In this document: piece after piece, positions 25,445 through 56,865 of the stretch | How positions within the stretch are numbered: position 1 is the first letter of the stretch | How the letters are laid out: every line of letters starts with the position of its first letter | Virus record (IMG/VR): IMGVR_UViG_3300023489_000004 | Span: 1 to 56,865 of that record | Source of the DNA: a virus | Length of the DNA stretch: 56,865 nt | Strand: one strand, 5' to 3' | The notes under the pieces: generated by a model | Database searches by the model: none | What the model was told of the DNA's origin: nothing | The model's input: the letters and a program-made list of their open reading frames with translations, nothing else | Made by a program: the position numbers and the translations under genes

Positions 25445-25476
25445 GAAGGTGTTATTCTCTTGAAAGGAGAACTATT

Positions 25477-27682: not shown

Positions 27683-27714
27683 GACATGGTATATTTAGTT
27701 GAAAGGAGTTTACC

Positions 27715-36253: not shown

Positions 36254-37454
36254 TCTATATCCTCATCAAAGAAAAGCGATAAACGAACTGAGGCCTGGCT
36301 CCATCCTTTGCGGTGGGGTCGGGTCCGGTAAGTCCAGAACTGCCATAGCCTATTATTTTTGCCAAGAGTGTGGTGGTAACATATCTTCTGATGGTGAGTT
36401 ATCGTCGATGACAAAACCAAAGGATTTATATATTATCACCACGGCTCGTAAACGAGATACTTTGGAGTGGGAGGATGAATGCTTACCTTTTTTGATAGGC
36501 AAGAAGGATTCTCCATATTCCATGAACTTCGTTGTGGATAGTTGGAACAATGTAAAAAAGTATCAAGATGTAAAAGATGCTTTCTTTATATTCGACGAAC
36601 AGAGAGTGGTTGGTAGCGGTACTTGGGTAAAAGCTTTTCTTAAAATCGCTAAGAATAATCATTGGATTTTACTTTCTGCTACTCCTGGAGACACTTGGTC
36701 TGATTATATCCCAGTGTTTGTGGCAAATGGCTTTTATAAGAATCGAACAGATTTTCTTCGTCAGCACGCAGTCTTTAATCGTTTTACGAAGTATCCTAAG
36801 ATCGATAGATATGTAGATTGTCGAAGGCTTGAAAAGCATAGAGATTCTATAACTGTCGAGATGCCTTTTAAGAAACATACTGTTAGACATATGATCGATG
36901 TGTTTGTCCCTTATGATGAAAATCTATATTCTGTCATAAGTAAAGATCGATGGAATCCGTTTGAAGATCGCCCAATAAAAGATATCAGTGAAGTTTGTTA
37001 TTCTATGCGCAAAGCAGTGAATTCCGATTCAGCTAGAATCGAACAAGTCATATCTTTGTTGGCGAAGAATCCAAAAGCTATTATTTTTTATAACTTTGAT
37101 TACGAATTAGACATGCTTCGAACTATGTGCTTCGAGAATCATATTTCTTGGGGTGAATGGAATGGGCACAATCACCAATCGATTCCAGAAGGAGACCGTT
37201 GGGTATATTTGGTTCAATACACAGCCGGTGCGGAAGGATGGAATTGTATAAAGACCAATGTTGTTATTTTCTATTCGTTGAATTATTCTTATAAAATCAT
37301 GGAACAAGCTTCTGGTCGAATAGATCGAATGAATACTCCATATTTTGATTTGTACTACTATCGTCTTCGATCAAGATCTAGCATTGACTCGGCGATATTC
37401 AAGACATTGATGAATAAGAAAACATTCAACGAAAAGAAATTTCTTGGCGTATGA
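36243..37454 (+). CDS. SF2 (SNF2/DEAD-like) helicase
   Basis: LYPHQRKAI, GGVGSGKS (motif I), FIFDEQ (motif II), SATPG (motif III), QASGRIDR (motif VI). Start uncertain (the track begins at 36171). Confidence 0.7.
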   Translation: MRINLYPHQRKAINELRPGSILCGGVGSGKSRTAIAYYFCQECGGNISSDGELSSMTKPKDLYIITTARKRDTLEWEDECLPFLIGKKDSPYSMNFVVDSWNNVKKYQDVKDAFFIFDEQRVVGSGTWVKAFLKIAKNNHWILLSATPGDTWSDYIPVFVANGFYKNRTDFLRQHAVFNRFTKYPKIDRYVDCRRLEKHRDSITVEMPFKKHTVRHMIDVFVPYDENLYSVISKDRWNPFEDRPIKDISEVCYSMRKAVNSDSARIEQVISLLAKNPKAIIFYNFDYELDMLRTMCFENHISWGEWNGHNHQSIPEGDRWVYLVQYTAGAEGWNCIKTNVVIFYSLNYSYKIMEQASGRIDRMNTPYFDLYYYRLRSRSSIDSAIFKTLMNKKTFNEKKFLGV

Positions 37455-37457
37455 GGC

Positions 37458-37482
37458 TCGCGTAAAAATAACATGCTATAAT
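37458..37482 (+). promoter_or_regulatory. Early-type promoter motif followed by a short hairpin/T-tract leader (37483-37530)
   Basis: CTCGCGTAAAAATAACATGCTATAAT followed by AGAAGGAG, as in P1-P3. Confidence 0.5.
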
Positions 37483-37544
37483 AGAAGGAGTAGAATACGC
37501 CTAGGGGCTAAATCTGCTCCTTTTATTTTTCTGAAAGGTTTTTT

Positions 37545-37838: not shown

Positions 37839-38367
37839 GGGTAAACATGCTTTTCTTAGTGCAAGTCAGCACGCTTGGGTTAACTATGATGAAGGCAAGT
37901 TGATTCGAGTATATTCTAATTTGCTGGCTGCAGCTCGAGGAACTAAACTTCATGAGTTTGCTTGTGAAGCTATTAAGTTGGGAGTTCGACTTCCAGATAA
38001 TAAGCAAACTATTAACATGTATGTTAACGATGCTATTGGTTATAAGATGACTCCCGAGTTGGTTCTTAAGTATTCCAATAATGCTTTTGGAACGGCTGAT
38101 GCTCTTTCTTTCAAGAAGGATCTTTTAAGGATTCATGATTTGAAAACTGGTAGATCAAAAGTTTCTATGGTTCAGTTGGAGATCTATGCGGCTCTATTCT
38201 GTCTAGAGTATGACGTAAAGCCAAATGATATTCAGATGGAGTTGCGGATTTATCAATCAAATGAAGTTCTGGTACACAATCCAGATCCTGATGATATTTT
38301 CCACATCGAAGACAAGATTATTTTGTTCGATCAGCGCATTGAAGAACTCAAGCAAGAGGAGGAATAA
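37810..38367 (+). CDS. PD-(D/E)XK (Cas4/RecB-like) exonuclease family protein
   Basis: HAFLSASQHAW N-terminus, GTADAL and IHDLKTG, QLEIYA. Confidence 0.5.
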   Translation: MNFNKHYDLEGKHAFLSASQHAWVNYDEGKLIRVYSNLLAAARGTKLHEFACEAIKLGVRLPDNKQTINMYVNDAIGYKMTPELVLKYSNNAFGTADALSFKKDLLRIHDLKTGRSKVSMVQLEIYAALFCLEYDVKPNDIQMELRIYQSNEVLVHNPDPDDIFHIEDKIILFDQRIEELKQEEE

Positions 38368-41066
38368 TGAACGATGACGAATTAATGCATTATGGTACTC
38401 CTCGACATTCTGGTCGATATCCTTGGGGTAGTGGCGAGAATCCATATCAATCATCCACTGGTCTTTATGGGATGGCCAAACAGCTAAAAAGCCAAGGCAT
38501 GTCTGATAAAGAAATTGCTGAGTCATTCGGCATGAGTACTCGAGAGTATAAATCAGCATATTCTAATGCAAAGAATGAAGTTCGTGCAGCAAATCGTGCT
38601 GAGGCTCTTAGGCTAAAGGATAAGGGATATTCTAACACCGCTATTGGTAAACGAATGGGCGTTAACGAATCTACTGTTCGCAGCTGGATGGATGAGGATA
38701 TTGCTGAGCGATCAAGTATTTCTAAAAACACAGCAAAAGCTTTAAAGAGCGCTGTAGATGATAAGAAATATATTGACATTGGCGGTGGCGTTGAGAATCA
38801 AATGGGTATTTCTCGTACCGCTCTCGATAATGCCGTTAAGATGCTGAAAGATGAGGGTTATACCGTTCATTATATTCAGACAGAACAACTTGGAACTGGT
38901 CATAAGACCTCCATCAAGGTTCTAGCTCCTCCCGATACTACATATTCTGAAGTATGGAACCATAAAGCCGATATTGAGTTTCCTGGATTTCATTCTGAAG
39001 ATAAAGGCCGAACCATTGATAAAATCGGAAAGCCTGTTAGTATTTCCTCTAAACGCATAAAAATTAATTATGCTGAAGAAGGAGGAAAAGACAAAGATGG
39101 TGTTATCGAACTTCGTCGAGGCGTAGATGATATTTCTTTGGGTAAAGCCAAGTATGCTCAGGTTCGAATCGCTGTAGATGGTACCCATTATTTAAAGGGC
39201 ATGGCAATGTATCGTGATGATATGCCAGATGGTGTTGACATTATATTTAACACTAACAAGGCAAAAGGTACTCCCATGCTTGGCGAAAAGGATAATTCAG
39301 TCCTAAAGCCTATGAAGAAAGATCAGGATAATCCTTTCGGAGCAACTATCAAAGGTGAACGAGAGCTTATTCTTGCTCAGCGATATTATACCGACAAGAA
39401 CGGAAAGCGTCAGCAATCGGCAATTAATATTGTAAACGAGGAAGGCGATTGGAATACCTGGCGAAAGAGCTTATCTTCGCAGATGTTATCTAAGCAAAGT
39501 CCTATGCTGGCTAAGAAGCAATTAAAACTCGCTTATGATCTTAAGCAGGATGAGTTTGATAGTATTATGAAACTCGAGAATCCTGTTATTCGCCAGCAAC
39601 TTCTTGATAAATTCGCAGATGGATGCGATTCGGCATCAGTTCATCTCAAGGCCGCTGGTCTTCCTCGTCAAGCATCAAAGGTTATTCTTCCATTTCCTTC
39701 GATGAAAGAAAACGAAGTTTATGCTCCATCATTTCGTGATGGTGAAGAAGTCGTATTAATTCGATATCCTCATGGCGGAACGTTTGAGATCCCTCGCCTT
39801 AAGGTAAACAACAAAGTTCCAGACGCTAAGAAGACACTTCATAATGCTCAAGATGCAATTGGTATTAACGCCAAAGTGGCTGAGCGATTATCTGGAGCAG
39901 ACTTTGATGGCGATACTGTTCTTGTTATTCCTACAAGCACTGCTAAAATTAAAACTTCTAAGCCTTTGGATGGGTTAAAAGACTTCGACCCTCAACGAGA
40001 CTATAAAGCATATCCTGGTATGCCTGAAGTAAAGGGTTCTGGTTTTAATAAACAGCAACAGATGGGCAATGTTTCAAATCTTATTACAGACATGACCATC
40101 AAAGGTGCTACGCCTGATGAATTGGCTCGTGCTGTTCGCCATTCTATGGTTATTATCGATGCTGAGAAACATAATCTTAATTATAAACAATCGGCTATTG
40201 ATAACAATATTGCTGAGTTGAAAAAGAAATATCAAGGCGGAAGCAATCGCGGAGCTTCTACGATTATTTCTAGAGCCAGTGCTACAGCATATGTTCCGGT
40301 TCGTAAGGAAATAACGAACACGAAATATATGACTGACGATGAGAAGAAGCGATATTCTAAAGGCGAAAAGATATATCGCGAAACTGGTGAAACTTATATT
40401 TCTAAGAAGACTGGAAAAGAAGTCAAACGTATTTCTAAATCCACAAAAATGGCCGAGACTTCTGATGCGAATACTTTATCTTCAGGATATTTAATCGAGA
40501 CCGTATATTCTGAACATGCCAATAAATTAAAGGCCCTAGCAAATAAAGCTCGAGCCGAATCTAGGTCTACTGATTATATTCCATATTCAAAAGAAGCGCA
40601 TGTAAAATATAAAGATCAAGTAGACTCTTTGAATTCTAAGCTAAATATAGCATTGAAGAATAGGCCCCTTGAGCGTAAGGCCCAGCTTATAGCTAATGCT
40701 AAGGTTAAGAATGTATATGCGGCCAATCCAGACATGGATTCGGATGATCTAAAGAAGCTTAAAGGTAGGTGCTTAACAGAGGCCCGCTTACAGACGGGTG
40801 CTTCTAAGCAACAGATTAAGATAGAGCCTAAAGAATGGGAAGCTATTCAGGCTGGTGCTATCTCTACCAATAAGCTTAAGTCTATTGTACAGAACTCAGA
40901 CCTTGATGTACTAAAGCAGTTAGCTATGCCTCGTGAGATGCGTGGTGTAACACCAGCACAAGAGTCAAGGATCAAGGTTCTTGAGAGTCGTGGATACACT
41001 CTTGCTGAGATAGCTGATGCTGTTGGTGTGTCTACTGGTACTATTACCAATGTACTGCAAGGATAG
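38367..41066 (+). CDS. Single-subunit two-barrel RNA polymerase (YonO/RdRP-like) with terminal HTH modules
   Basis: Beta-like barrel motif GTHYLKGMAMYRDDMPDGVDIIFN (aa 272-295). Beta'-like barrel VVLIRYPHGGTFEI...AERLSGADFDGDTVLVIP (aa 462-522). HTH-like segments at aa 44-65, 86-108 and 875-899. Confidence 0.75.
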   Translation: MNDDELMHYGTPRHSGRYPWGSGENPYQSSTGLYGMAKQLKSQGMSDKEIAESFGMSTREYKSAYSNAKNEVRAANRAEALRLKDKGYSNTAIGKRMGVNESTVRSWMDEDIAERSSISKNTAKALKSAVDDKKYIDIGGGVENQMGISRTALDNAVKMLKDEGYTVHYIQTEQLGTGHKTSIKVLAPPDTTYSEVWNHKADIEFPGFHSEDKGRTIDKIGKPVSISSKRIKINYAEEGGKDKDGVIELRRGVDDISLGKAKYAQVRIAVDGTHYLKGMAMYRDDMPDGVDIIFNTNKAKGTPMLGEKDNSVLKPMKKDQDNPFGATIKGERELILAQRYYTDKNGKRQQSAINIVNEEGDWNTWRKSLSSQMLSKQSPMLAKKQLKLAYDLKQDEFDSIMKLENPVIRQQLLDKFADGCDSASVHLKAAGLPRQASKVILPFPSMKENEVYAPSFRDGEEVVLIRYPHGGTFEIPRLKVNNKVPDAKKTLHNAQDAIGINAKVAERLSGADFDGDTVLVIPTSTAKIKTSKPLDGLKDFDPQRDYKAYPGMPEVKGSGFNKQQQMGNVSNLITDMTIKGATPDELARAVRHSMVIIDAEKHNLNYKQSAIDNNIAELKKKYQGGSNRGASTIISRASATAYVPVRKEITNTKYMTDDEKKRYSKGEKIYRETGETYISKKTGKEVKRISKSTKMAETSDANTLSSGYLIETVYSEHANKLKALANKARAESRSTDYIPYSKEAHVKYKDQVDSLNSKLNIALKNRPLERKAQLIANAKVKNVYAANPDMDSDDLKKLKGRCLTEARLQTGASKQQIKIEPKEWEAIQAGAISTNKLKSIVQNSDLDVLKQLAMPREMRGVTPAQESRIKVLESRGYTLAEIADAVGVSTGTITNVLQG

Positions 41067-41442: not shown

Positions 41443-41964
41443 ATGCCTGATACGTGGAAGAAAATACCAGGTTTTTCTCAATATTCTGTATCTAGTTCCG
41501 GAGAAGTTCGGAATGATGTACGAGATTTGATAAAAAAGCCGTTTGTCACTAGTAATGGTTACGCAAATGTTGATTTGTATCGAGATGGGAAGAGGTATAA
41601 ATTCCGGGTTCATCGTTTGGTTGGAGAATTATTCGTTCCAAATCCGGACGAATTAGATTTTGTAAATCACAAAGATGGAAACAAACTAAATAACGATTAT
41701 TCCAATTTGGAATGGGTTACGGCTAGTTATAATATGAAACATGCCTATTCTACTGGCTTGGCAAAACCTAGTAAGGGAATGCTTGGAAAAAAGAATCCTA
41801 ATGGTGGTCGAAAAGGACATCCGGTTCGAGTAATTGAGACTGGCGAAGAATTTCCCAGTATTACTGCTTGTGCCAAAGCCATTAACGGAAACGATAGGCA
41901 TATTTGCGATTGTTTATCTGGTCGTCAATCTTTTCATAAAGGATACTCGTTTGAATTGATTTAA
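41443..41964 (+). CDS. HNH homing endonuclease (NUMOD4 plus HNH_3 type)
   Basis: WKKIPGFSQYSVSSSGEVRN...HRLV...VNHKDGNKLNNDYSNLEWVT. Confidence 0.8.
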   Translation: MPDTWKKIPGFSQYSVSSSGEVRNDVRDLIKKPFVTSNGYANVDLYRDGKRYKFRVHRLVGELFVPNPDELDFVNHKDGNKLNNDYSNLEWVTASYNMKHAYSTGLAKPSKGMLGKKNPNGGRKGHPVRVIETGEEFPSITACAKAINGNDRHICDCLSGRQSFHKGYSFELI

Positions 41965-42073: not shown

Positions 42074-42646
42074 ATGCTACTTGAAGATACAGCAATCAAG
42101 TTTAAGTCCCAGTACAAGAATTTGATTGTTCCTTTTAACGAGAATCAACTTCAGCCTTGTAGTTATGACTTGACTCTCGATAAAGATCTACTAACGTTCG
42201 AGTTTGCATCGAATTCGTGTCCGCCCGATGCATTTATTACGGCTTATGACAAGCAAGTTCATGGTATCGATTACCAATCGATCGATCTTTCTACTCTCAA
42301 AGATGAGATCTATGTTCTTCAGCCGAATCAGTTTATCATTGCTTCAACGCAAGAGACGGTAAACATGCCGGATGACATTGCTGGCCGCTTCGAGGGAAAG
42401 TCTTCTCTCGGTCGTCTTGGACTCACCACCCATGTTACGGCAGGTTTCATTGACGCTGGTTTCTCAGGTCAGATCACACTCGAAATGAAGAACGAGAATC
42501 GCTTTCCCATTTGGATTAAGCGAGGAATGAAGATTGGGCAAATCTGCTTCTTCAAAATGAATGGTCGAGCAAGGCATCCGTATGGATCCGAAGGTCTCGG
42601 CTCACATTACAACAATCAAAATGGACCAACTCCCGCAAGGTCTTAA
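42074..42646 (+). CDS. dcd: dCTP deaminase (dUTPase superfamily)
   Basis: QPCSYDLTL...GRFEGKSSLGRLGLTTHVTAGFIDAGFSGQITLEMKN. Confidence 0.8.
   Translation: MLLEDTAIKFKSQYKNLIVPFNENQLQPCSYDLTLDKDLLTFEFASNSCPPDAFITAYDKQVHGIDYQSIDLSTLKDEIYVLQPNQFIIASTQETVNMPDDIAGRFEGKSSLGRLGLTTHVTAGFIDAGFSGQITLEMKNENRFPIWIKRGMKIGQICFFKMNGRARHPYGSEGLGSHYNNQNGPTPARS
42615..42629 (+). promoter_or_regulatory. Late-region motif copy (ATCAAAATGGACCAA)
   Basis: Exact 10-mer core in the 3' end of dcd, 186-195 nt upstream of the putative small terminase gene (start GTG 42801 or 42810). Confidence 0.3.
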
Positions 42647-43133: not shown

Positions 43134-43536
43134 AACTTACTCGGAACTTATCGAGATTCCATCCTTTAAAGAACGCTACGAGTATCTAAGACTCGATGGC
43201 AAAGTTGGAGAGGATACTTTTGGTTGAAGTCGATACTTAAACCAAGCACTGTATACCTCGGATGAATGGAAACGAATACGACGTCAGGTAATACTTCGTG
43301 ATAACGGATGCGATTTGGCTGTAGCTGGTTTTGAAATTCAAAATAGGCTTTTGATTCATCACATCAATCCGATAACCGCTGAAGACATAGAAACTGGTTC
43401 TCCACTAATCTTCGATTTAAACAATCTTATTTGTTGTTCACTTAATACTCACGAAGCCATTCATTATGGGAATGTAAATCTACTTCCGTCCGATCCAGTT
43501 ATACGCAGACCGAATGATACTTGTTTATGGAGGTGA
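43123..43536 (+). CDS. Terminase-associated HNH endonuclease, interrupted by in-frame TGA (43225-43227)
   Basis: MSIRTYSELIEIPSFKERYEYLRLDGKVGEDTFG, then the stop, then SRYLNQALYTSDEWKRIRRQVILRDNGCDLAVAGFEI..LLIHHINPIT...H in one frame. The track sees only 43315..43536. Confidence 0.6.
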
Positions 43537-43542: not shown

Positions 43543-45288
43543 ATGAGTCTTTCTAATTCAGCTACTCCAATTTATTACGGCAAATTTCGTGACGCTGTAA
43601 TTCGAGGAGAGATTCCTGTTTGTCGAGAGATCTCTATGCAGATGAACCGAATCGACAACATGATCCGAGATCCTGGTTTGTATTATGATGACAAAGCCAT
43701 TAATGGTTTCGTACATTTTTGCGAGAATGAGCTAACTCTTACCGACGGTAGTGATCTTAAGTTACTAGACACTTTTAAACTTTGGGCAGAAGATGCACTC
43801 AGTTGGTTTTATTTCGTAGATCGAACTGTTTATCAACCTAGTCCTGATAACCATGGCGGGGTTTATGTAAAGAAGCGAATAAAGAAGCGTCTTGTTAACA
43901 AGCAGTATTTGATCGTTTCTCGTGGTTCGGCCAAGTCAATGTATGCAGCTTGTATGCAAGCGTATTATCTGACAGTTGATACTTCAACTACTCAGCAGAT
44001 AGTAATGGCTCCAATCCTTACTCAGACTGAAGAGACACTTAGTCCTATTCGAACAGCTATCACTCGAGCTAAAGGTCCATTATTTCAGTTTCTAACTGAT
44101 GGTAATCTAGCTAATACCGCTGGAAGTTTGGCAGATCGCAAGAAACTCTCATCTACCAAGAAGGGTATTGAGAATTTCTTAACGAACTCGATCATTGAAG
44201 CTCGAGCCATGGGAATTGACAAAGTACAAGGAGCTAAGCCAAAATTCTCATCAGTTGACGAATGGCTTTCATGCGACATTCGAGAAGACGTCATCGGTGC
44301 TTTGGAACAGGGTGCTACTAAGAATGACGATTACTTGATTCTTGCCATCTCTTCTGAGGGTACAGTTCGTAACGGTGCCGGCGATACAATCAAAATGGAA
44401 TTAATGGACATACTCAAAGGCGAGTATGTGAACCCGCATGTGTCCATTTGGTATTATAAACTTGACAGTATTGAAGAAGTTGCTGATCCTTCTATGTGGA
44501 TGAAGGCGGCTCCTAATATTGGTAAGACTGTTTCTTATGAGACTTATCAGCTTGCTGTTGAGCGTGCTGAGAAGGCTCCCTCTACTCGAAACGATATTCT
44601 TGCTAAGCGTTTCGGCATTCCCATGGAAGGCTACACATATTTCTTCACTTACGAAGAGACTCTACCTCATAAGCCACGAAATTTCTGGCAGATGCAATGT
44701 TCTATGGGAGCGGATCTTTCTCAGGGCGATGACTTCTGTGCGTTTACATTCCTATTCCCTCTTCCTCGAGAAAAATACGGAATTAAGACTCGGTGCTACA
44801 TTTCTTCCGACACAATGGCGAAACTTACTCCTGCAACAAGGATCAAGTACGAAGACTTCTTACGAGAAGGTTCTTTGATGGTACTCGATTGTGTTGCTCT
44901 GGATATGAATGAAGTTTACAATGATCTAGATCAGTATATTGCTGATAACGAATACGATGTTACCTCTTTCGGTTACGATCCGTATAACGCAAAGGAATTT
45001 GTCAACCGATGGGCTACCGAGAACGGTCCGTTTGGTATCGAGAAAGTAATTCAAGGTGTTAAGACGGAGTCGGTTCCTCTTGGCGAGTTGAAGAAACTTG
45101 CTGAGAATCGAGCTTTGCTATTCGATGAATCTTTGATGGAATTCTGTATGGGTAACGCAATTGCTTTGGAGGATACTAACGGTAATCGCAAGCTGTATAA
45201 GAAGCGCCATCAAGATAAGATCGACTCGGTAGCAGCAATGCTTGACGCCTATGTAGCATTTAAGCTTAATCGAGATTCTTTTGAATAG
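43543..45288 (+). CDS. Terminase large subunit
   Basis: Terminase_1-like organisation, 581 aa; position before the portal gene. Confidence 0.85.
   Translation: MSLSNSATPIYYGKFRDAVIRGEIPVCREISMQMNRIDNMIRDPGLYYDDKAINGFVHFCENELTLTDGSDLKLLDTFKLWAEDALSWFYFVDRTVYQPSPDNHGGVYVKKRIKKRLVNKQYLIVSRGSAKSMYAACMQAYYLTVDTSTTQQIVMAPILTQTEETLSPIRTAITRAKGPLFQFLTDGNLANTAGSLADRKKLSSTKKGIENFLTNSIIEARAMGIDKVQGAKPKFSSVDEWLSCDIREDVIGALEQGATKNDDYLILAISSEGTVRNGAGDTIKMELMDILKGEYVNPHVSIWYYKLDSIEEVADPSMWMKAAPNIGKTVSYETYQLAVERAEKAPSTRNDILAKRFGIPMEGYTYFFTYEETLPHKPRNFWQMQCSMGADLSQGDDFCAFTFLFPLPREKYGIKTRCYISSDTMAKLTPATRIKYEDFLREGSLMVLDCVALDMNEVYNDLDQYIADNEYDVTSFGYDPYNAKEFVNRWATENGPFGIEKVIQGVKTESVPLGELKKLAENRALLFDESLMEFCMGNAIALEDTNGNRKLYKKRHQDKIDSVAAMLDAYVAFKLNRDSFE
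44389..44403 (+). promoter_or_regulatory. Late-region motif copy (ATCAAAATGGAATTA)
   Basis: Exact 10-mer core inside TerL. Confidence 0.3.
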
Positions 45289-45305: not shown

Positions 45306-46421
45306 ATGTACGAATATCCAGACTACCTTATGCGCTACGGTGTCCTAGGAATGAAATGGGGCGTACGTAGATATCAAAATAAAGATGGTGCATATACGCC
45401 AAAGGGTCATAGACGATATTTTAATGGTTCAAATAAAGTAAAAACTTCTCATAAAGATAAATTAATTGCCAAGTATAAAGAAAAAGGGTATAGCAATAAA
45501 GCAGCGGAATTAGCTGCTCAAAAGCGGATTCGTAATGAACGAATAATGATTGCTGCTGGAGCGATAACTTTAACGGCAGCAGTTGCTTACTTGGCTACTA
45601 GAGATAATTTTGATCGTGCTGATCGAATTATTAAAGAAGGAGCCAAATTAGGCCGAATCGAAAATAACGATTCAGGAAAGCTATATGACGGTTTTTACGC
45701 GTTTAATAATAAGCGTGACGCTGTTCGATATAAAGGCTTTTATGGAAATCAAGTAGCCTCTACTGGGGCAAAAACATATCTTATGGATCTTACGACTACT
45801 GGTAGTATTAAAATTCCATCACGTGATAACGCTAAAAAGGCCCTTAGTGAATTGATTAAAGAAGATCCGACATATGCTCGTAATTTGAAGAGTATGTTAA
45901 ATTCGAATTTCGGAGTTGATCATAGAGATAGACTCGCTCGTAAAGCACTTAGGGATCTTTCAAAAGGAAAAGTTACAGATGCAGTCTATGATGCAGTTAA
46001 TACTGATTTAACTTTTAAGGGCGATATTCCGAATTATCAAAAAACGAAATATTATGAGAAATTAGCCTCCAAGGGATATAACGCTATTAGGGATATTCAT
46101 GATGTCAAGTATAGCGGATACAAATCTCAAGATCCGTTAATTGTCTTTGATAAATCAAAGGTTATGGTGAATAAAATATCCCAGATGTCCGCTTCTGAAC
46201 TAATTTCGAATAATTACGAAGCGATCGGTCAGAACGCATTAGAATATACGCGAGATTACACTTTGAAGGCTTTAATAGCCGGAGGAGCTGCAACTACTGG
46301 ACTTACTGCCGGAGCACAATCAGTAAAAACAGTAGGTGAGAAGAATTTCTTACGATCTTATAAGAAAGCTCATCCAGAAACAAAGAAGACCGATTATCAA
46401 ATTTTGAAAATGTATAAGTGA
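45306..46421 (+). CDS. Head-module protein with N-terminal YLMxYGxxGMKWGxR motif (371 aa, TM segments)
   Basis: N-terminus MYEYPDYLMRYGVLGMKWGVRRYQNKDG; hydrophobic IMIAAGAITLTAAVAYLA. Confidence 0.6.
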   Translation: MYEYPDYLMRYGVLGMKWGVRRYQNKDGAYTPKGHRRYFNGSNKVKTSHKDKLIAKYKEKGYSNKAAELAAQKRIRNERIMIAAGAITLTAAVAYLATRDNFDRADRIIKEGAKLGRIENNDSGKLYDGFYAFNNKRDAVRYKGFYGNQVASTGAKTYLMDLTTTGSIKIPSRDNAKKALSELIKEDPTYARNLKSMLNSNFGVDHRDRLARKALRDLSKGKVTDAVYDAVNTDLTFKGDIPNYQKTKYYEKLASKGYNAIRDIHDVKYSGYKSQDPLIVFDKSKVMVNKISQMSASELISNNYEAIGQNALEYTRDYTLKALIAGGAATTGLTAGAQSVKTVGEKNFLRSYKKAHPETKKTDYQILKMYK

Positions 46422-46430
46422 GGTGATTTG

Positions 46431-46820
46431 ATGGATCAATATTCAAACTATCTTATGCATTACGGCATTCCTGGAATGAAATGGGGAGTTCGTAAAAAAC
46501 GAAATTCTGTTGGAAAGAAAACAACGAGACGAAAGAAACGTCAAGATTCGTATTCCAAGGATTACTTGGATTCAAAGGCTTTGCGGTCTAAGAGCTATAA
46601 GCAATTGTCAACTTCCGAAATGAAAGAGTTAAACAAACGACTAGAAGCGGAATCACAATATCGTAGATTAAACCCAAAGGGGTTTGATAAAGGTATGGCA
46701 ATAGCGAAAAAAGCCATTGCTATTGGTGGAACCGCTGCTGGCGTATACGCATTAAGCAAAAACCCTTGGGTTCCCGTTGGCGAGGACTTGATAAAACATG
46801 TTGGAAGGTATTTGGTGTAA
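46431..46820 (+). CDS. Head-module protein with the same N-terminal motif (129 aa)
   Basis: MDQYSNYLMHYGIPGMKWGVRKKRN. Confidence 0.6.
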   Translation: MDQYSNYLMHYGIPGMKWGVRKKRNSVGKKTTRRKKRQDSYSKDYLDSKALRSKSYKQLSTSEMKELNKRLEAESQYRRLNPKGFDKGMAIAKKAIAIGGTAAGVYALSKNPWVPVGEDLIKHVGRYLV

Positions 46821-46821
46821 C

Positions 46822-47220
46822 ATGAATTATAAAGATGATTATTTAGCTCACTATGAAGTTCTCGGTATGAAATGGGGACAACGTCGAGTTCGAGTTAATC
46901 AAGAAAAAGCTAGACGAGCTAAGGCGTTGGGTAACAAAGAAGCGTACTCCAAGTATTCTGCCAAGGCTAATCGAATAAAGCAGAAGCACATTCGATTGTC
47001 TGGAGGTAAGAAGGCCTACGATTATACCAAAAATGAGAGTCTTGGCAAGTCGTTGGTTAAGTCTGTTTTGCTTACTACGTATGGTACCATGAAGTATAAC
47101 GAGTTTCGATCTAACGGTGAAAGTCAAATGAAATCCGGAGTTAAAGCCGTAGCGTATGGATTCGCTAACAATTTAACTAGCGGCATCGTGTCGATTGCCG
47201 AACCTAGGCTTCGAAAATAG
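46822..47220 (+). CDS. Head-module protein with the same N-terminal motif (132 aa)
   Basis: MNYKDDYLAHYEVLGMKWGQRRVR. Confidence 0.6.
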   Translation: MNYKDDYLAHYEVLGMKWGQRRVRVNQEKARRAKALGNKEAYSKYSAKANRIKQKHIRLSGGKKAYDYTKNESLGKSLVKSVLLTTYGTMKYNEFRSNGESQMKSGVKAVAYGFANNLTSGIVSIAEPRLRK

Positions 47221-47232: not shown

Positions 47233-48507
47233 ATGGCTGAATCTTTTAGGACCAGACTTCAACATGCCTGGAATGCTTTTAGTAATCAAGAGACTACTGA
47301 CTATAGGTATTCTACGTCTGTTGGGTCTTCTTATGGTTATCGGCCGGATCGTGTTGGGATATCTATCGGATCAGAACGTACAATCATTAACGCCATTTAC
47401 AATCGAATAGCCGTTGATGTTGCAGCTACAACTTTTATGCATGTTCGTGTAGATGAGAATAAGCGTTATGAAGAAGAGATTAATTCTGGTTTAAACTATT
47501 GCCTTAACGAAGAGGCGAATATTGATCAGACAGCAACAGCCTTTATGGCCGATATTGCTTATTCTCTTCTAGAAGAAGGATGTATCGCAATCGTCCCGAT
47601 TGATACGACATTGGATCCGTTTGTTACAGGGTCCTATGATATCAATTCTATGCGACGAGGAAAAATTGTTGGTTGGCATCCGAAGCATGTTGATCTTGAA
47701 GTTTATAACGATAATTCAGGAATCAAACAGCAAATTACAATGCCTAAATCATCGGTAGCTATTATCGAAAATCCGTTTTATGCTGTTATGAATGAGCCCA
47801 ATTCTACTTTGAAGCGACTCGTTTATAAGCTTAAACTTCTTGATGATGCGGATGCAAAAGCTAACTCGTCGAAGCTCGATGCTATTGTTCAGTTACCATA
47901 TACGATTCGTAACGAATCTCAAAAGAAGCGCGCTGAAGAGCGTAAGCGCTCTCTTGAAGATCAGCTTGAGAATTCCAAGTATGGTGTCGCATATATTGAC
48001 GCTACGGAAAAGTTTACTCAACTTAATCGTTCTGTTGAGAATACTCTTCCTGAGCAGATTAAGACACTTACTGATCAGTTATATTCTCAGTTGAGTCTTG
48101 ACGTCACAGTGCTTAATGGTACCGCTACCGATTCTACGATGAACAATTATTATCAGCGAACAGTAGCACCAGTTGTTAAGGCAATTCGTGATGCTATGAA
48201 TTGTAAATTCTTGACAAAGACTGCTCGAACTCAGAATCAGCAGATTATGACGTTCCAAGATCCGTTCAAGTATATGACTGTGACACAGATTTCTCAGATG
48301 GTTGATTCTTTGAGTCGTAACGAGGTTCTTACTGGTAACGAGTTCCGCACAGCTCTTGGATTTAAGCCTTCCGAAGAGCCTAGTGCTGACGAGCTTCGTA
48401 ACAAGAATCTTATTGATCCAAATGCTGATTACAGTTCTTCATCAGATGAAGATTATTATCCCGATGACGTATCCGACGTCGAAAATCAAAATGGAAGTTA
48501 TCAGTAA
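47233..48507 (+). CDS. Portal protein
   Basis: 424 aa, between the terminase and the capsid/protease gene; acidic C-terminus. Confidence 0.7.
   Translation: MAESFRTRLQHAWNAFSNQETTDYRYSTSVGSSYGYRPDRVGISIGSERTIINAIYNRIAVDVAATTFMHVRVDENKRYEEEINSGLNYCLNEEANIDQTATAFMADIAYSLLEEGCIAIVPIDTTLDPFVTGSYDINSMRRGKIVGWHPKHVDLEVYNDNSGIKQQITMPKSSVAIIENPFYAVMNEPNSTLKRLVYKLKLLDDADAKANSSKLDAIVQLPYTIRNESQKKRAEERKRSLEDQLENSKYGVAYIDATEKFTQLNRSVENTLPEQIKTLTDQLYSQLSLDVTVLNGTATDSTMNNYYQRTVAPVVKAIRDAMNCKFLTKTARTQNQQIMTFQDPFKYMTVTQISQMVDSLSRNEVLTGNEFRTALGFKPSEEPSADELRNKNLIDPNADYSSSSDEDYYPDDVSDVENQNGSYQ
48485..48499 (+). promoter_or_regulatory. Late-region motif copy (ATCAAAATGGAAGTT)
   Basis: Lies in the last codons of the portal gene, 96 nt upstream of the capsid gene start. 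Confidence 0.4.
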
Positions 48508-48580: not shown

Positions 48581-50407
48581 ATGAAGTACGATTTTTCAGG
48601 TTATGCAACACGCAACAACATTAAGTGTTCTGACGGTCGCGTTATTATGCGCGATGCGTTTAAGGATAATGACCATAAGAAGGTACCTCTTGTTTGGCAG
48701 CATGATCATATGTCTCCGGATAATGTGCTAGGTCACGCTATGCTCGAGAATCGAGAAGATGGCGTTTATGCTTATGGTTGTTTTAATGATACTCCATCTG
48801 GTTTAAACGCTAAAGAGCTGGTTAAGAACGGAGACGTTCGAGCGCTTTCCATTTACGCGAACAAGCTTAAGCAGGATGGCGCTAACGTTATTCATGGAGC
48901 AATTCGCGAAGTAAGTTTGGTTCTTGCTGGAGCAAATCCTGGAGCATATATCGATACCGTTATGGTTCATTCAGATGGCGATGAGGAAACGGAAGACGCC
49001 GAGATTTGCTTTAATCTTAATAGCAATCCTGTAATTTATCATTCTGATGAGGCCGACGACGGTGACGATTCGAATGATAAGTCAGACGATAGCATCGCTC
49101 ATGCTGATAAAGTTGATGAAAAAGGAAAAGACATGGCCAATAATAATACCGGATCCGATGGTAAGACTGTTCAGGATGTCATTGATTCCATGACTGACGA
49201 GCAGAAGAATGTATTGTATACTCTTGTCGGTATGGCTGCCGACGGTTCTTTAGATGAAAGTGGGGCTGATATGAAGCATAATGCTTTTGAGGATGAGGAT
49301 GACACCATGGCTCATTCTATTGATTTTGATGAGATTCTTCGAGACGCAAAGCGTTGCGGTTCTTTGCGTGACTCTGTGATGCAGCATGGTCTTGAGGATG
49401 TTAGCTATACTGATTATCTTGAGCATGGTAAGGCGACCTACGGCATCGATCAGATTGATACCTTGTTCCCCGATTTTAAGAGCCTTAACACTCCTCCTGC
49501 CTTTGTTTCCCGCAATATGGACTGGGTTGCCGGCGTTATGAACAGTGTTTCGCATACGCCGTTCTCCCGAATCAAGTCTGTGTTTGCTAACATTACTGCT
49601 GACGAGGCGCGTGCTCGAGGCTATACTAAGGGTAAGAAGAAGCTTGAGGAAGTCTTTACTCTTCTTAAGCGTACCACTACCCCTCAGACCATTTATAAGA
49701 AGCAGAAGTTTGATCGAGACGACGTTCTCGATATTACCGAGTTCGATGTCGTTGCCTGGGTTAAGGGCGAGATGCGAATGATGCTTGATGAGGAAATTGC
49801 TCGTGCTATTCTTGTTGGCGATGGTCGATCCGATTCCTCCGATGATCGCATCTTCCCGACTAACATTCGACCGGTTTGGCAGGATGATACTTTCTATACC
49901 ATCCGTGCTCAGGTTGACACCAAGGGTATGACCACCGAGGAAGCTAAGACCGAGGCTGTTATCAAGGCTATCATTCGTGCTCGTAAGAATTATAAGGGTT
50001 CTGGCAACCCGGTGTTCTATACCACCGAGGATGTTCTTACCGACATGCTTCTCCTTGAGAATCAGATCGGCGATGTTAAGTATAAGACGAAGCAGGAGCT
50101 GGCTAACCGTCTGCGCGTTTCTGACATCGTGACTGTCGAGGTCATGGAGGGTCTGACCCGCAAGGGCGATGCTAGCAAGGGCGACGCGGCTGATTCCGCT
50201 ACCAAGGATCTGAACCTTGTTGGTCTTATTGTCAACCTCAAGGATTACAATGTTGGTGCCGATAAGGGTGGTGCCGTGTCCATGTTTGATGACTTCGACA
50301 TTGACTACAACCAGCAGAAGTATCTGATCGAGACCCGTTGCTCTGGCGCTCTGATTAAGCCTTATGCCGCTATCTCGGTCGAGACGTTCGATTCTACCGC
50401 TGCGTAG
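48581..50407 (+). CDS. Prohead serine protease (HK97/S78-like) fused to the major capsid protein
   Basis: N-terminal KVPLVWQHD...GHA...VRALSIYAN...IREVSLVLAGANPGAYID resembles the S78 protease. An acidic linker is followed by an HK97-fold-like capsid domain. Confidence 0.7.
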   Translation: MKYDFSGYATRNNIKCSDGRVIMRDAFKDNDHKKVPLVWQHDHMSPDNVLGHAMLENREDGVYAYGCFNDTPSGLNAKELVKNGDVRALSIYANKLKQDGANVIHGAIREVSLVLAGANPGAYIDTVMVHSDGDEETEDAEICFNLNSNPVIYHSDEADDGDDSNDKSDDSIAHADKVDEKGKDMANNNTGSDGKTVQDVIDSMTDEQKNVLYTLVGMAADGSLDESGADMKHNAFEDEDDTMAHSIDFDEILRDAKRCGSLRDSVMQHGLEDVSYTDYLEHGKATYGIDQIDTLFPDFKSLNTPPAFVSRNMDWVAGVMNSVSHTPFSRIKSVFANITADEARARGYTKGKKKLEEVFTLLKRTTTPQTIYKKQKFDRDDVLDITEFDVVAWVKGEMRMMLDEEIARAILVGDGRSDSSDDRIFPTNIRPVWQDDTFYTIRAQVDTKGMTTEEAKTEAVIKAIIRARKNYKGSGNPVFYTTEDVLTDMLLLENQIGDVKYKTKQELANRLRVSDIVTVEVMEGLTRKGDASKGDAADSATKDLNLVGLIVNLKDYNVGADKGGAVSMFDDFDIDYNQQKYLIETRCSGALIKPYAAISVETFDSTAA

Positions 50408-56100: not shown

Positions 56101-56865
56101 TGGACTTATGGCTGGCACAGGCATGGCTATAGTGGCCGATTCATTGAAGAACATTGTTGGGCCGTTTAAGCAAATCGCATCTATGTCCTGGGAAGAAATA
56201 ATTAGAGGCTTAGTCGGCATGGGCGGTGCTCTGGGCGAGTTGGCAGGTATTACTGGCCTCTTTGGAAAGCTAGCCGGATTCTCAGGTATTGTTGGTGCCG
56301 CAGGATTAGATATTGCTGTGCAAGCACTTAAGCCTACTGCTGATGCTCTTAATTCCTTAGCCGGTCTTGATTGGGAATCAATTAAGGTAGGACTCGTTGG
56401 TATCGGAGGAGTATTAGCCGAATTAGCGACAATTAGTGGCTTATTTGGAAAACTAGCCGGATTCTCGGGCATCGTTGGTGCTGCAGGATTGGATATCGCA
56501 GTTCAGTCACTTAAACCTACTGCTGATGCGCTTAATTCTTTAGCTGGTCTTAGTTGGGAATCAATTAAGGTAGGACTCGTTGGTATCGGAGGAGTATTAG
56601 CCGAATTAGCAACAATTAGTGGCTTATTCGGTTCCTTAGCTGGATTCTCCGGTATTGTTGGAGCTGCTGGATTAGACATTGCTGCTCAGTCACTTAAACC
56701 AGTGGCCGAGTCACTTAATTCCTTAGCGGGTCTTGGTTGGGACTCAGTGGTTAGTGGCTTAGTTGGTCTTGGAGGAGTATTAACAGAATTAGCTGTAATT
56801 AGTGGCTTATTCGGTTCCTTAGCTGGATTCTCCGGTATTGTTGGAGCTGCTGGATTAGACATTGC
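53174..56865 (+). CDS. Tail tape measure protein, N-terminal part (3'-open; continues at nt 1..2300)
   Basis: ATGA overlap with the upstream gene. The core YQLSQALATGTVKLMDWNSVVNAGMGGQVFQDAL is the TP901-type tape measure signature. No stop before the window end. Confidence 0.9.
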   Translation, partial: MSSVDNRVVEMQFENKQFESGVAKTLSSVKKLKEGLNFKDSAESLKNLGSVSKNVDMSNLIGAVESIKDRFSTLGIIGMTVLQNIANKAISVGSTLTKSLTLQPITEGFAEYETQMNAIQTILSNTRSEGTNIQQVNSALDELNHYADQTIYNFTEMTRNIGTFTAAGVDLNTSVNAIQGIANLAAVSGSSSQQASTAMYQLSQALATGTVKLMDWNSVVNAGMGGQVFQDALKETSKELGTGAEAAIKANGSFRESLQTGWLTSQVLTETLKKFTTSGAMEWVANYCDVSKDAVQSAYDQAYANSKATDTIGKQKDAIDGCAEALAKQTGKSKDAIKETLSLAYDAQDAATKVKTFSQLIDTLKEALGSGWTKSWQIMIGDFEEAREMWTNVSVVLSDMINKSADARNALLQDWANLGGRKAIIDGIATAFNNIVSVAGAVSKAFREVFPTVTAQQLMNISNGFKTLMEKMKPSEQTLSNIGRVAKGVFSLLDLAGKAVFNLAEAFGKFAASSAIASLAKAIGDIVLKLSDYLVELDKGATKINVFSKAMDALIDVVSGFINKAGQMATSIREKIVGVLKDAKDTIIDFVNGVKKETSEADNNSNDLVKLIAVIGAVGAALKKANIVSILQKIGTTFLKFFGKKKASSLFDDLVKPFQESMDTIANSLQNLTKSVKVGQLLAIAAAVGILAGSIKTLGEMDPIQLGIGLAGIVAAFEALTFGFKQLSIMTGKMNTKGTLKSAGVMIVMAEAMKILAKAMKILADLDFQQIAQGVAGISILMNQMSKSISKLDGISVKAGAIAETLVMALAVKSLVKALKSISDLKPTQIAKGLGGLAGCMFMLVKSLNSLDGLSINAGVIVETIAVAVSVKTLVESLKSISDLKPTQIAKGLGGLAGCLVVLIESLKAVNKTSGSLKNIAILISLTASVKSLAKTLKTISSMSWDEIKKGLFGMAGAFAELVIVMKALPKVQGFDGLMAGTGMAIVADSLKNIVGPFKQIASMSWEEIIRGLVGMGGALGELAGITGLFGKLAGFSGIVGAAGLDIAVQALKPTADALNSLAGLDWESIKVGLVGIGGVLAELATISGLFGKLAGFSGIVGAAGLDIAVQSLKPTADALNSLAGLSWESIKVGLVGIGGVLAELATISGLFGSLAGFSGIVGAAGLDIAAQSLKPVAESLNSLAGLGWDSVVSGLVGLGGVLTELAVISGLFGSLAGFSGIVGAAGLDI
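56276..56865 (+). repeat. High-identity 183-nt (61-aa) tandem repeats in the tape measure gene (copies at 56276, 56459, 56642 and 56825; the last continues at nt 56-197)
   Basis: Units GFSGIVGAAGLDIAxQxLKPxAxxLNSLAGLxWxSxxxGLVGxGGVLxELAxISGLFGxLA. Degenerate units of about 59-61 aa extend back to about 55.4 kb. A 69-nt exact repeat occurs at 56614-56682 and 56797-56865. Confidence 0.9.
56811..56865. repeat. Terminal 55-nt overlap, identical to 1..55
   Basis: Exact identity. Confidence 0.95.

Follow-up and report, generated by a model that had tools for sequence, protein, structure and literature searches.

A DUF7211 peptide on head-module proteins, and in diverged form on a YonO-like RNA polymerase, as a candidate capsid-targeting tag of 1706-like siphophages

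Three DUF7211 proteins between terminase and portal

Three neighbouring proteins encoded in the head module of a virus genome open with one short peptide and an RNA polymerase (RNAP) encoded further upstream opens with a similar one, raising the question whether this peptide is a sorting signal that directs otherwise different proteins into the capsid for ejection, as the initial annotation had proposed. The window analyzed here is the whole stretch of 56,865 nucleotides of IMG/VR record IMGVR_UViG_3300023489_000004. Three ORFs at 45,306–46,421 (371-aa protein), 46,431–46,820 (129-aa, or 129/130-aa, protein) and 46,822–47,220 (132-aa, or 132/140-aa, protein) are indeed located on the plus strand between the genes for the terminase large subunit (TerL, 43,543–45,288, plus strand; Pfam TerL_nuclease, 7e-35, and TerL_ATPase) and the portal protein (47,233–48,507, plus strand; Pfam Phage_portal, 6e-18, and phrog_12), the latter directly 3' of the third ORF. 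A Shine-Dalgarno sequence lies closely 5' of each of the three ATG codons chosen in the initial annotation: the ribosome binding site GAGGTGA stands just 5' of the ATG of the 129-aa protein, and GGAAGG precedes the ATG at 46,822, which directly follows the upstream stop codon.

All three proteins begin with a YLM(R/H)YG..GMKWG-type sequence and pass the gathering cut-off (27 bits) of the 25-position model PF23847 (DUF7211), with 32.4 (371-aa), 45.8 (129-aa) and 32.2 bits (132-aa). The motif noticed from the letters is real, with the correction that it is an already curated Pfam family of unknown function. The 371-aa protein also matches phrog_7502 (4e-30), and no NCBIfam model matches any of the three. 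The tag covers aa 4–28 in the 371-aa protein (nt 45,315–45,389) and aa 4–22 in both the 129-aa protein (nt 46,440–46,496) and the 132-aa protein (nt 46,831–46,887), where E replaces the glycine of HYG; the conserved histidine is not invariant, Arg taking its place in the 371-aa protein. A six-frame scan of the window found the motif at these ORFs and at the RNAP N-terminus, and nowhere else. Among 7,732 ORFs of the window and of loci related to it, the core [LIVMFY]xH[YFHWI]G[VITM] is present in 201 of 209 DUF7211 ORFs, in 28 of 35 RNAP ORFs (at least five of the seven lacking it are truncated and without N-terminus) and in 24 of the 7,488 ORFs belonging to neither group. A protein search with the motif profile returned chiefly truncated fragments on short contigs, which extended the motif to WGVRRYQNKDGSLT.AGKKRY and were uninformative on cargo; the literature search found no mention of DUF7211.

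Beyond the tag, the three proteins had been described as different in length and sequence and as all having hydrophobic segments. This description stands in part. By Kyte-Doolittle hydropathy, the segments range from strong (1.89; 371-aa protein, aa 80–98) over moderate (1.22; 129-aa protein) to weak (0.96; 132-aa protein), and the small paralogues are not wholly unrelated past the tag, since members of the family repeatedly show a basic linker, a helix of the form 'LS.EL..N.R..LE..Y' and a hydrophobic helix rich in Gly/Ala. In the 129-aa protein, the tag is followed by the basic linker, the 'LSTSEMKELNKRLEAESQY' helix and the Gly/Ala-rich hydrophobic helix (aa 90–108), and the 132-aa protein continues basic and helical up to its weakly hydrophobic C-terminal segment. 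The 371-aa protein, the only one of these three single-unit proteins with a globular domain, consists of the tag, a long helix with the hydrophobic stretch, an alpha/beta domain (aa ~105–295) and a C-terminal Gly/Ala-rich helix.

The AF2 model of the 371-aa protein (mean pLDDT 82) reaches more than 90 in the cargo domain and about 50 in the tag (residues 1–20), and the DUF7211 motif is accordingly predicted to be flexible or disordered. Foldseek searches with this model gave, as best match to a solved structure, chain 9k3a_B of the cyanophage A4 pre-ejectosome (E 3e-4, local only with a TM of 0.24), as well as weak matches to 'polyvalent'/ART-PolyVal viral proteins (E 1e-4 to 3e-2). The conserved His of the H-Y-D triad is absent from the invariant columns of the 371-aa cargo domain family (p371), which comprises 54 local homologues; nearly all of them start with a DUF7211-type N-terminus and 44 pass the DUF7211 HMM. 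PDB sequence searches yielded no match for the DUF7211 profile or the RNAP, and only insignificant ones (E ≥ 0.014) for the p371-domain profile.

Lineage-wide distribution, cargo and junction sites

The tag arrangement is a lineage trait and no local accident. In 151 related loci (79 from IMG/VR, 72 from genomes or MAGs), the gene order is RNAP, DUF7211 genes on either side of TerL, portal and capsid-protease fusion, with 186 DUF7211 ORFs upstream of TerL, 167 between TerL and portal, 4 after the portal gene and 1 on the other strand. The RNAP was found in 36 of 36 loci having at least 9 kb upstream of TerL, and one locus (L142) carries DUF7211 genes without head genes. In case of isolated phages, matches of the RNAP and of the 129-aa protein come from almost identical host genera and in similar numbers. 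The carriers are 1706-like siphophages, a lineage also described as an actinobacteriophage supercluster together with Lactococcus and Faecalibacterium phages; DUF7211 is common in phages of gut Clostridia and in actinobacteriophages. The motif is found in some 45,760 protein representatives (50 % identity). Placement is mostly N-terminal, 181 of 245 motif matches lying at most 15 aa from the first start codon and the motif His standing at position 5–20 with a mode of 10–12 (354 called proteins), but in some relatives the motif is internal, after DUF5662, DUF6582 or 2H phosphoesterase domains. A DUF7211 gene is often situated directly 5' of TerL, i.e., in the position of a small terminase. The identity with small terminase that this position suggests was rejected because of the copy number of 1 to 10 per genome, the fusions to toxins and enzymes and the absence of a DNA-binding fold.

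Virion evidence comes from Lactococcus phage 1706 as database annotation: in the depositors' record (EU081845), orf7 and orf75 are both entered as 'structural protein'. Orf7 is encoded directly 5' of TerL and contains two DUF7211 motifs (41.8 bits); orf75, homologous to the RNAP with 39 % identity along its full length, has the same N-terminal motif. The structural proteins of phage 1706 were reportedly obtained by LC-MS/MS of virions. Since orf62 and orf71 are motif-less yet also annotated as 'structural protein', detection in the virion is not tag-dependent and could include contaminants. The structural annotation of ReqiPepy6 gp019 was made by similarity to 1706 gp07. Literature searches gave nothing useful on 'orf75' or on the virion proteomes of further members of the lineage.

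The proteins that carry the motif are diverse. Domains fused to DUF7211 in relatives include a Gln_amidase toxin (5 of 75 relatives), GNAT, 2H phosphoesterase, DUF5662/DUF6883 and the p371 domain. This diversity bears on the possibility that the DUF7211 family supplies ordinary minor parts of the head (with a scaffold-like, decoration or head-completion function), the motif joining them to the capsid lattice, and that its members are neither cargo nor ejected. The location in the head module of a lineage without separate scaffolding gene would agree with such a role, as would the weak match of phrog_35934 ('virion structural protein') to two of the three proteins. However, the variable copy number and the extreme variation in length and domains are atypical of lattice components, the motif is found fused to enzymes and toxins and is itself predicted to be disordered, and an RNA polymerase with a related peptide is no lattice protein; a purely structural role is therefore considered quite improbable.

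In addition, units occur in series: among the 45,760 representatives, the best 150 have two to five units each. A Φ-x-H-[SDATGMN] sequence is present at most 39 aa upstream of 161 of 237 internal units as compared to 7–12 % expected (about 6–10 fold enriched), and the spacing between site His and motif His is most often 10–12, equalling the motif-His position in stand-alone proteins. Similar sites are crowded in the protein that joins the prohead protease (S78) to the major capsid protein (48,581–50,407, plus strand; Pfam Peptidase_S78 and Phage_capsid; phrog_3270, 5e-205), the linker of which (aa 127–290, nt 48,959–49,450) contains seven Φ-x-H-[SADNG] sites (VMVHS, VIYHS, SIAHA, DMKHN, TMAHS, VMQHG and YLEHG). 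By pattern scans, the linker holds several Φ-x-H sites in 99 of 99 capsid-protease fusions; the density of these sites, clustered in the linker, amounts to 1.42 per 100 aa of the whole fusion versus 0.02 in TerL (about 70 fold). Based on their occurrence both before internal units and in this linker, the Φ-x-H-S/D sites probably are maturation cleavage sites of the prohead protease, suggesting a cleavage specificity for the S78 prohead proteases of this lineage. Sites common to the polyproteins and the capsid-protease linker would imply exposure to the prohead protease and thus a location inside the procapsid. The motif His as cleaved P1 residue is kept as a mere possibility, weakened by the Arg at this place in the 371-aa protein. 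The portal N-terminus 'RLKHAWNAF' was dismissed as a conserved cleavage site, His being present in only 63 of 107 sequences.

A location inside the procapsid would be at odds with a second alternative, in which the tag serves docking during assembly or regulation. In this case, DUF7211 proteins would be membrane-anchored or chaperone-like and bind TerL, portal or procapsid transiently, for instance to keep packaging at the membrane; the RNAP would use the same peptide to link packaging with late transcription, and the mature virion would contain none of them. A model for transcription-packaging coupling exists in T4, where gp55 binds the terminase gp17. The placement of the genes on both sides of TerL, often with one in the small-terminase slot, fits this proposal. 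So do the frequent hydrophobic helices, an excess of predicted membrane proteins having been noted for 1706-like phages, and the place of the RNAP gene, which in circular form directly precedes the late operon, as would suit a late-gene transcriptase. Nevertheless, transient docking is judged unlikely, given the structural annotation of 1706 orf7 and orf75, the toxin and enzyme cargo that is hard to square with assembly factors, and the junction sites.

The N-terminal peptide of the RNA polymerase

The RNAP (38,367–41,066, plus strand; 899 aa) matches phrog_4291 (E=0) over aa 2–898 and contains the metal-binding/catalytic DxDGD loop as GADFDGD (aa 510–516; DFDGD at nt 39,900–39,914). On the basis of full-length homology and this loop, it can be assigned by sequence to the YonO/QDE-1-like two-barrel single-subunit RNAPs; the family has been placed with the YonO-like RNAPs (PMC2919709; 10.1101/842583). 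HTH domains are predicted at both ends (Pfam HTH_23/HTH_38), and the match to Pfam RdRP is weak, remaining below cut-off (16.5 vs 23.8 bits). The gene is located at the end of the replication arm. As a separate observation, the early region of the window contains promoter-like repeats of the form TCGCG...TATAAT with a perfect TATAAT, so that the host RNAP may suffice for early transcription. The repeat occurs in 0 of 164 related loci, and no tie to the phage RNAP is therefore possible.

The tag-like peptide of the RNAP, DDELMHYGTPRHSGRYPWGSGENPYQ, comprises aa 3–28 (nt 38,373–38,450). It had been taken to share the LMHYG.P...G..WG skeleton of the head-module proteins; this applies to the first half (acidic, L-x-HYG-[VTI]) but not to the second, which reads R-x-SGRYPWGSG-x-NPYQ. 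The polymerase of the window has no match to PF23847 at E ≤ 1 with the whole protein or at E ≤ 10 with the first 60 aa, and the N-termini of three of five homologues match below threshold (13.4–18.7 bits), in profile positions 3–13 only. In contrast, hhalign comparison of the RNAP N-terminus with the DUF7211 profile gave a probability of 93.5 % and a P of 2.3e-7 over 'deL.HYGv'. Judged from these alignments, the RNAP motif is only half-homologous to DUF7211, the kinship being visible at the profile-profile level only. The pattern 'acidic-L-x-HYG...SGRYPWGSG' is kept in every full-length RNAP homologue examined, and homologues with the N-terminal peptide were found in phages of Streptomyces, Arthrobacter, Gordonia, Microbacterium, Lactococcus and Faecalibacterium as well as in oral phages. 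A protein search with the RNAP retrieved only near-identical copies from the same abundant gut phage and hence no diversity.

The limited likeness leaves room for a third alternative, namely that the resemblance is convergent or trivial: 'HYG..R.SGRYPWGSG.NPYQ' would be an element of the polymerase's own, e.g., a DNA/RNA-binding or autoinhibitory one beside the HTH, and the true tag would be confined to the three head-module proteins. Besides the failing or half-profile matches, this is supported by the shortness of the common part (about 8 residues), by a spacing from HYG to WG of 9–16 residues in RNAPs versus 5 in DUF7211 (4 to 11 extra) and by the restriction of 'SGRYPWGSG' to RNAPs among about 14,000 local ORFs. 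Convergence is still regarded as rather unlikely, for several observations contradict it: the hhalign P value, the 1000-fold rarer occurrence of the core pattern in other ORFs, its invariably extreme N-terminal position in RNAPs with the same acidic lead-in, the strict co-occurrence of the RNAP with DUF7211 genes in all 36 loci, and the annotation of the 1706 homologue as a virion protein.

Proposed role and known systems

With moderate confidence, we interpret the DUF7211 peptide as a flexible linear tag by which injected proteins, a virion RNAP among them, would be targeted to the capsid; this reading is plausible for the phage of the window and apparently undescribed. The sorting signal for capsid and ejection postulated in the initial annotation, RNAP included, is thereby partly supported in view of the 1706 annotations, the genomic context, the cargo diversity, the predicted flexibility and the junction sites. 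Its wording as a shared N-terminal signal is inexact, as the RNAP motif is half-homologous and, in some primary translation products, the motif stands elsewhere than at the N-terminus. No requirement for capsid ejection proteins is known in siphophages, which counts against the proposed role.

What follows on the signalling role of the tag, its binding partner, the cleavage and the ejection, and on an injected RNAP that transcribes early, is our inference. Tagged proteins would be made late, from genes on either side of the terminase gene, and would dock inside the assembling procapsid, the likely partner being either the portal or, within the capsid-protease fusion, the protease/scaffold part. 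Fused multi-unit polyproteins may be cut by the prohead protease at Φ-x-H|S/D, each unit thereby gaining an N-terminus like that of stand-alone proteins. The products would remain in the head until infection, when they would exit together with the DNA. Small members, in which the tag is followed by a basic linker, a helix and a Gly/Ala-rich hydrophobic helix, may then enter the host membrane or accompany the DNA, and larger ones could bring effector domains, i.e., an ART/polyvalent-like domain in case of the 371-aa protein and a papain-fold toxin, GNAT or 2H phosphoesterase elsewhere. The YonO-like RNAP would be loaded likewise through its diverged tag and so be able to transcribe phage genes on entry. 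Put forward only tentatively, as possible rather than probable, is the full version, in which a very large siphophage lineage uses DUF7211 as a portable tag for loading and ejection. In this version, the capsid-protease fusion would recognize the tag through its protease/scaffold part, multi-unit polyproteins would be cut at the previously undescribed Φ-x-H|S/D, and a diverged copy of the tag would load the YonO-like RNAP, which would be co-injected with variable effectors. If the tag reading is true, a role would be assigned to DUF7211, a large uncharacterized family, and the many small membrane-like ORFs near the terminase in 1706-like and SEA-PHAGES genomes would be explained.

The closest parallel may be the capsid targeting sequence (CTS) of T4, which is found on the internal proteins IPI-III and on Alt. 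As in T4, a short N-terminal peptide stands on otherwise unrelated proteins in case of DUF7211, loading into the prohead is proposed, presumed prohead-protease sites are associated, cargo would be injected with the DNA and host-modifying enzymes are among it. The packaging of Alt is summarized in PMC5512222. The sequences of CTS and DUF7211 are unrelated, however, and the present system belongs to a Gram-positive siphophage with capsid-protease fusion and no separate core; its putative tag of about 20–40 aa is often followed by a basic linker and hydrophobic helix and also occurs in multi-unit polyproteins. A true tag of this type would be a short sequence fusable to arbitrary cargo for delivery by phage heads.

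Podophage ejection or pre-ejectosome proteins (T7 gp14–16; cyanophage A4 gp26–29, PMC12002296) are likewise capsid-internal, include members with membrane-inserting helices and enzymatic domains, and exit with the DNA; the A4 chain matched locally by the 371-aa model belongs to this group. Differing from podophages, siphophages normally form the channel with the tape-measure protein.

Virion RNAPs are described for N4 and, fused to the tape-measure protein, for P23-45 (e.g., 10.1101/2022.12.01.518664; PMC13434306). The RNAP of the window resembles virion RNAPs in being a single polypeptide, with carriage in the particle and transcription on entry being proposed. CrAss-like phages possess a YonO/QDE-1-type virion RNAP, likewise two-barrel with DxDGD. 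The present RNAP differs by its 899 aa, by HTH/sigma-region-4-like domains at both ends and by its position at the end of a siphophage replication arm, and its presence in virions is suggested by the annotation of the 1706 homologue. We know of no vRNAP for which packaging via a tag common to other cargo has been described; if true, this would represent a fourth vRNAP route in ordinary Gram-positive siphophages, beside those of N4, crAss-like phages and the P23-45 tape-measure fusion.

Similarities also exist with toxins fused to MuF and with polyvalent proteins (Iyer et al. 2017, PMC5512222; phage 1706 is unmentioned there). Encoded in head modules, they string several variable enzyme or toxin domains (ART-like, GNAT, peptidase-fold toxins) together as 'beads on a string', and packaging and injection have been predicted for them; 'polyvalent'/ART-PolyVal entries are among the weak matches of the p371 model. 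If the tag reading holds, injected anti-defence effectors could be found as whatever comes after the tag. The common module is a short linear DUF7211 before each unit here versus a MuF/portal domain there, and the proteins of the window are small and single-unit, relatives reaching up to five units.

Motif-bearing proteins of the head module

The standard head module of the window is encoded on the + strand and comprises TerL (43543-45288), a portal (47233-48507) and an S78 prohead protease fused to an HK97-type capsid protein (48581-50407). The initial annotation had placed three ORFs with a common N-terminal motif between TerL and portal, and this holds: the proteins of 371 aa (ORF starting at 45306, +), 129 aa (46431, +) and 132 aa (46822, +) score 32.4, 45.8 and 32.2 bits, respectively, against Pfam PF23847 (DUF7211; a 25-position model of unassigned function in Pfam), all above the gathering cut-off of 27 bits; an NCBIfam search provided no model matching them. 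Each ATG named in that annotation is preceded by a Shine-Dalgarno sequence, and each protein opens, 4-5 residues past the Met, with [YD]-[YFL]-L-x-[HR]-Y-[GE]-[VI]-x-G-M-K-W-G. The hydrophobic segments ascribed to all three are strong in the 371-aa, moderate in the 129-aa and weak in the 132-aa protein. A six-frame scan of the window retrieves four motif sites only, the fourth being the N-terminus (MNDDELMHYGTPRHSGRYPWGSGENPYQ) of a YonO-like single-subunit RNA polymerase (RNAP; 899 aa, 38367-41066, +). The latter aligns with phrog_4291 from end to end (E=0), carries HTH/sigma-region-4-like domains at both termini and contains the two-barrel catalytic loop 'GADFDGD' at aa 510-516. The YonO-like RNAP family of phage 1706 and relatives was noted previously (PMC2919709; 10.1101/842583).

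In the interval from the RNAP gene to TerL, two ORFs resemble HNH endonucleases and one a dCTP deaminase/dUTPase (41443-41964, 42074-42646 and 43315-43536), a layout in agreement with the conserved HNH-terminase arrangement described for this lineage. Portal N-termini across the lineage have 'SRL(K/R)(H/N/R/S)AWNAF' in common (47254-47283, portal aa 8-17 in the window), the variable residue being His in 63 of 107 homologues.

A motif-profile scan yielded 79 IMG/VR loci and 72 loci from bacterial genomes or MAGs, some being integrated prophages in Clostridia. Local HMM searches of these 151 loci detected 1-10 DUF7211 ORFs per locus and a TerL homologue of the window's type in 139; 186 of the DUF7211 ORFs are located upstream of TerL, 167 in the TerL-portal interval, four past the portal and one on the other strand. 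The RNAP is encoded in all 36 loci having at least 9 kb upstream of TerL. The sole exception to the head-module context is a Lachnospiraceae MAG contig (CAMVKW010000013.1; DUF7211 ORFs at 2079-2696 and 9989-10696), where homologues of TerL, portal, capsid and RNAP are all missing from a 20-kb stretch; one of its DUF7211 ORFs has a GNAT-like C-terminus, and a recombinase-like ORF is located beside the pair. Among isolated phages, 250 records match the RNAP and 192 the 129-aa protein, with nearly identical host genera and comparable counts (RNAP and 129-aa protein, respectively: Arthrobacter, 95 and 95; Streptomyces, 54 and 49; Curtobacterium, 7 and 7; Microbacterium, 4 and 4; Rhodococcus, 4 and 4; Faecalibacterium, 2 and 2). 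Microbacterium phage Count carries the motif on genes 10, 12, 14, 15 and 16, around TerL (gene 11) and ahead of the portal (gene 17), ReqiPepy6 on eight genes (gp013 and gp015-021), and FP_oengus on a single gene directly ahead of the portal.

The RNAP peptide and the virion of phage 1706

RNAP homologues occur in phages of Streptomyces, Arthrobacter, Gordonia, Microbacterium, Lactococcus and Faecalibacterium as well as in oral and gut metagenomes. All those examined begin with acidic residues and [LI]-x-H-Y-G-[VTIM], followed by a spacer of 3-10 residues and 'SGRYP[WL]GSG-x-NP[YF]Q'. The acidic lead-in and L-x-HYG-[VI] are common to DUF7211, which then continues directly with G-M-K-W-G. Profile-profile comparison of 192 DUF7211 and 24 RNAP N-termini aligned the two over 'deL.HYGv' (probability 93.5%, P 2.3e-7). 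The Pfam model produced three sub-threshold matches to RNAP N-termini (13-19 bits, profile positions 3-13 only) and none to that of the window RNAP. The core pattern is present in 201 of 209 DUF7211 ORFs, 28 of 35 RNAP ORFs (at least five of the other seven being truncated, with the N-terminus missing) and 24 of 7,488 other ORFs, two of these 24 being diverged family members. A coincidental resemblance appears rather unlikely in view of the profile alignment; we conclude from these comparisons that the first half of the RNAP peptide is genuinely common with DUF7211, by descent or via the same binding partner, and that the second half is RNAP-specific. Thus, the same skeleton originally claimed for the RNAP and the three ORFs applies to the first half only.

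EU081845, the GenBank record first deposited for Lactococcus phage 1706, gives the name 'structural protein' to both orf7 and orf75. The former (462 aa) is encoded directly upstream of TerL and contains two DUF7211 stretches (41.8 bits); the latter (1,029 aa) shows, along its entire length, 39% identity to the window RNAP and has 'LQHYGTKRHSGRYPWGSG' at its N-terminus. The 11 'structural protein' entries of EU081845, together with portal, capsid/protease and two tail proteins, amount to 15, and Garneau et al. reportedly identified by LC-MS/MS, in 2008, the same number of virion proteins. As a caveat, the motif-free orf62 and orf71 are likewise 'structural' in this record. RefSeq later named orf75 'RNA-dependent RNA polymerase', and a literature search retrieved no paper linking its two annotations or mentioning the motif.

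The best-supported model, somewhat favoured overall, is that the DUF7211 motif serves as a capsid-targeting tag for injected cargo and that the RNAP is packaged in the virion. The sorting signal envisaged by the initial annotation is partly supported, gaining from the annotation of orf7 and orf75 and from synteny; its extension to the RNAP is weakened by the tag being only half-similar there. Further points against packaging are the Arg replacing the conserved His in the window's 371-aa protein and the internal position of the motif in some proteins, as is the fact that no need for capsid ejection proteins is known in siphophages. An assembly or regulatory docking peptide acting without packaging is considered unlikely. 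For the capsid-targeting tag, a function like that of the T4 capsid targeting sequence is proposed, for DUF7211 proteins an injected-cargo role as in polyvalent and MuF-toxin proteins, and for the RNAP a virion location as in N4, crAss-like phages and P23-45. By sequence, the DUF7211 system stands outside all of these. It would represent a variant of capsid-targeting signal, virion RNAP and injected effectors, attached to a catalogued but uncharacterised Pfam family.

Putative cargo domains and a candidate protease site

Many family members, including the window's 371-aa protein, extend the motif to '...GMKWGVRRYQNKDGSLT.AGKKRY'. Downstream of the motif there is usually a basic linker, together with an 'LS.EL...N.R..LE..Y' helix and a hydrophobic helix rich in Gly/Ala. 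The motif could have belonged to an ordinary globular domain; the AlphaFold2 model of the 371-aa protein (80 homologues, mean pLDDT 82) argues otherwise, since a pLDDT of ~50 for the tag, versus above 90 for the domain, suggests the tag to be flexible and outside any fold. The globular domain has 54 local homologues, 44 of which pass the DUF7211 HMM and nearly all of which open with a DUF7211-type N-terminus; it recurs in ReqiPepy6 gp017, gp018 and gp020 and in Count gp12. Its top solved Foldseek match is a cyanophage A4 pre-ejectosome chain (E 3e-4, TM only 0.24), followed by weak matches to diphtheria toxin and Tse6, while predicted viral structures retrieved 'large polyvalent protein-associated', 'PolyVal ADP-ribosyltransferase' and 'ART-PolyVal-like' entries. 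The domain may tentatively be regarded as an ART; the invariant columns of the homologue alignment include no His. In other family members, the domain behind the tag is a papain-fold glutamine-deamidase toxin, a GNAT acetyltransferase, a 2H phosphoesterase, or DUF5662 with DUF6883; that DUF7211 proteins form a lattice component appears very unlikely.

In ReqiPepy6 gp013 (1682-3277 of its locus) and protein P0323, the DUF7211 units come after a fused 2H phosphoesterase (LigT/2'-5' RNA ligase-like), an enzyme that is a candidate for injection against host defences relying on cyclic nucleotides or RNA. Proteins P0249 and P0250 and an ORF of related locus L011 (1048-2667) are DUF7211 polyproteins terminating in the glutamine-deamidase domain (Pfam PF15644), pointing to putatively phage-head-delivered toxins in the lineage.

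An exhaustive search of 1.84 billion representatives retrieved 45,760 proteins at E<=1e-3, the best 150 of which contain 2-5 motif units apiece and reach 1,569 aa. Within these 150, 161 of 237 internal units are preceded, at most 39 residues upstream, by Φ-x-H-[S/D/A/T/G/M/N] (Φ, hydrophobic; e.g., 'VKHSDEIIDDYLQHFG' and 'KMQHSDDELAHFG'), against ~7-12% by chance. The distance from site His to motif His peaks at 10-12 residues, in agreement with where the motif His lies in stand-alone proteins. Since many of the latter start with 'MS(D/S/A)..', a cut after the site His would make the N-termini of internal units resemble those of Met-removed stand-alone proteins. All 99 capsid-protease fusions examined have several Φ-x-H sites in the protease-capsid linker, including near-invariant 'MKHN[VAI]F[DE]' and 'VLSH[SA]D'; site density per 100 aa across the lineage is 1.42 in the fusion, 0.23 in the portal, 0.18 in the RNAP and 0.02 in TerL. 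The window fusion has seven Φ-x-H-[SADNG] sites in its acidic linker (aa 127-290, nt 48959-49450), probably the maturation cleavage sites of the S78 protease; no site is present in the window's TerL, three DUF7211 proteins or 1,422-aa ORF. From this distribution we infer Φ-x-H| to be the prohead-protease site of the lineage, DUF7211 polyproteins being presumably processed within the procapsid. We know of no earlier description of such a specificity for an S78 protease.

Promoter-like and other repeats

The early region contains eleven intergenic copies of a ~25-nt repeat, TCGCGAAAAAWTMACAYSSTATAAT, ending in TATAAT (13103-13132; 13538-13837, three copies; 15235-15264; 22969-22998; 24086-24147; 24883-24953; 25420-25481; 27658-27728; 37443-37491). 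Each stands shortly upstream of an RBS and start codon, one of them ahead of the operon whose last gene encodes the RNAP. Within three mismatches, six copies were observed versus none expected by chance. No TTGACA-like -35 element was found with the copies, and the repeat is absent from 164 related loci. It could be a promoter, either one of the host sigma-A type equipped with an upstream element specific to the phage or one belonging to the phage RNAP itself; being potentially readable by host RNAP, the repeats count against the packaging of the phage enzyme.

Both window ends (1-100 and 56189-56865) lie inside a 183-nt tandem repeat of a tape-measure-like ORF, and the genome is probably complete and circularly permuted, its assembly having broken in this repeat. 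An Ala-rich, imperfect 66-nt repeat occurs 16 times in the 1,422-aa ORF (3634-7902), and the low-complexity, A/T/Q/S/N-rich product of this ORF may be a fibre or surface protein.
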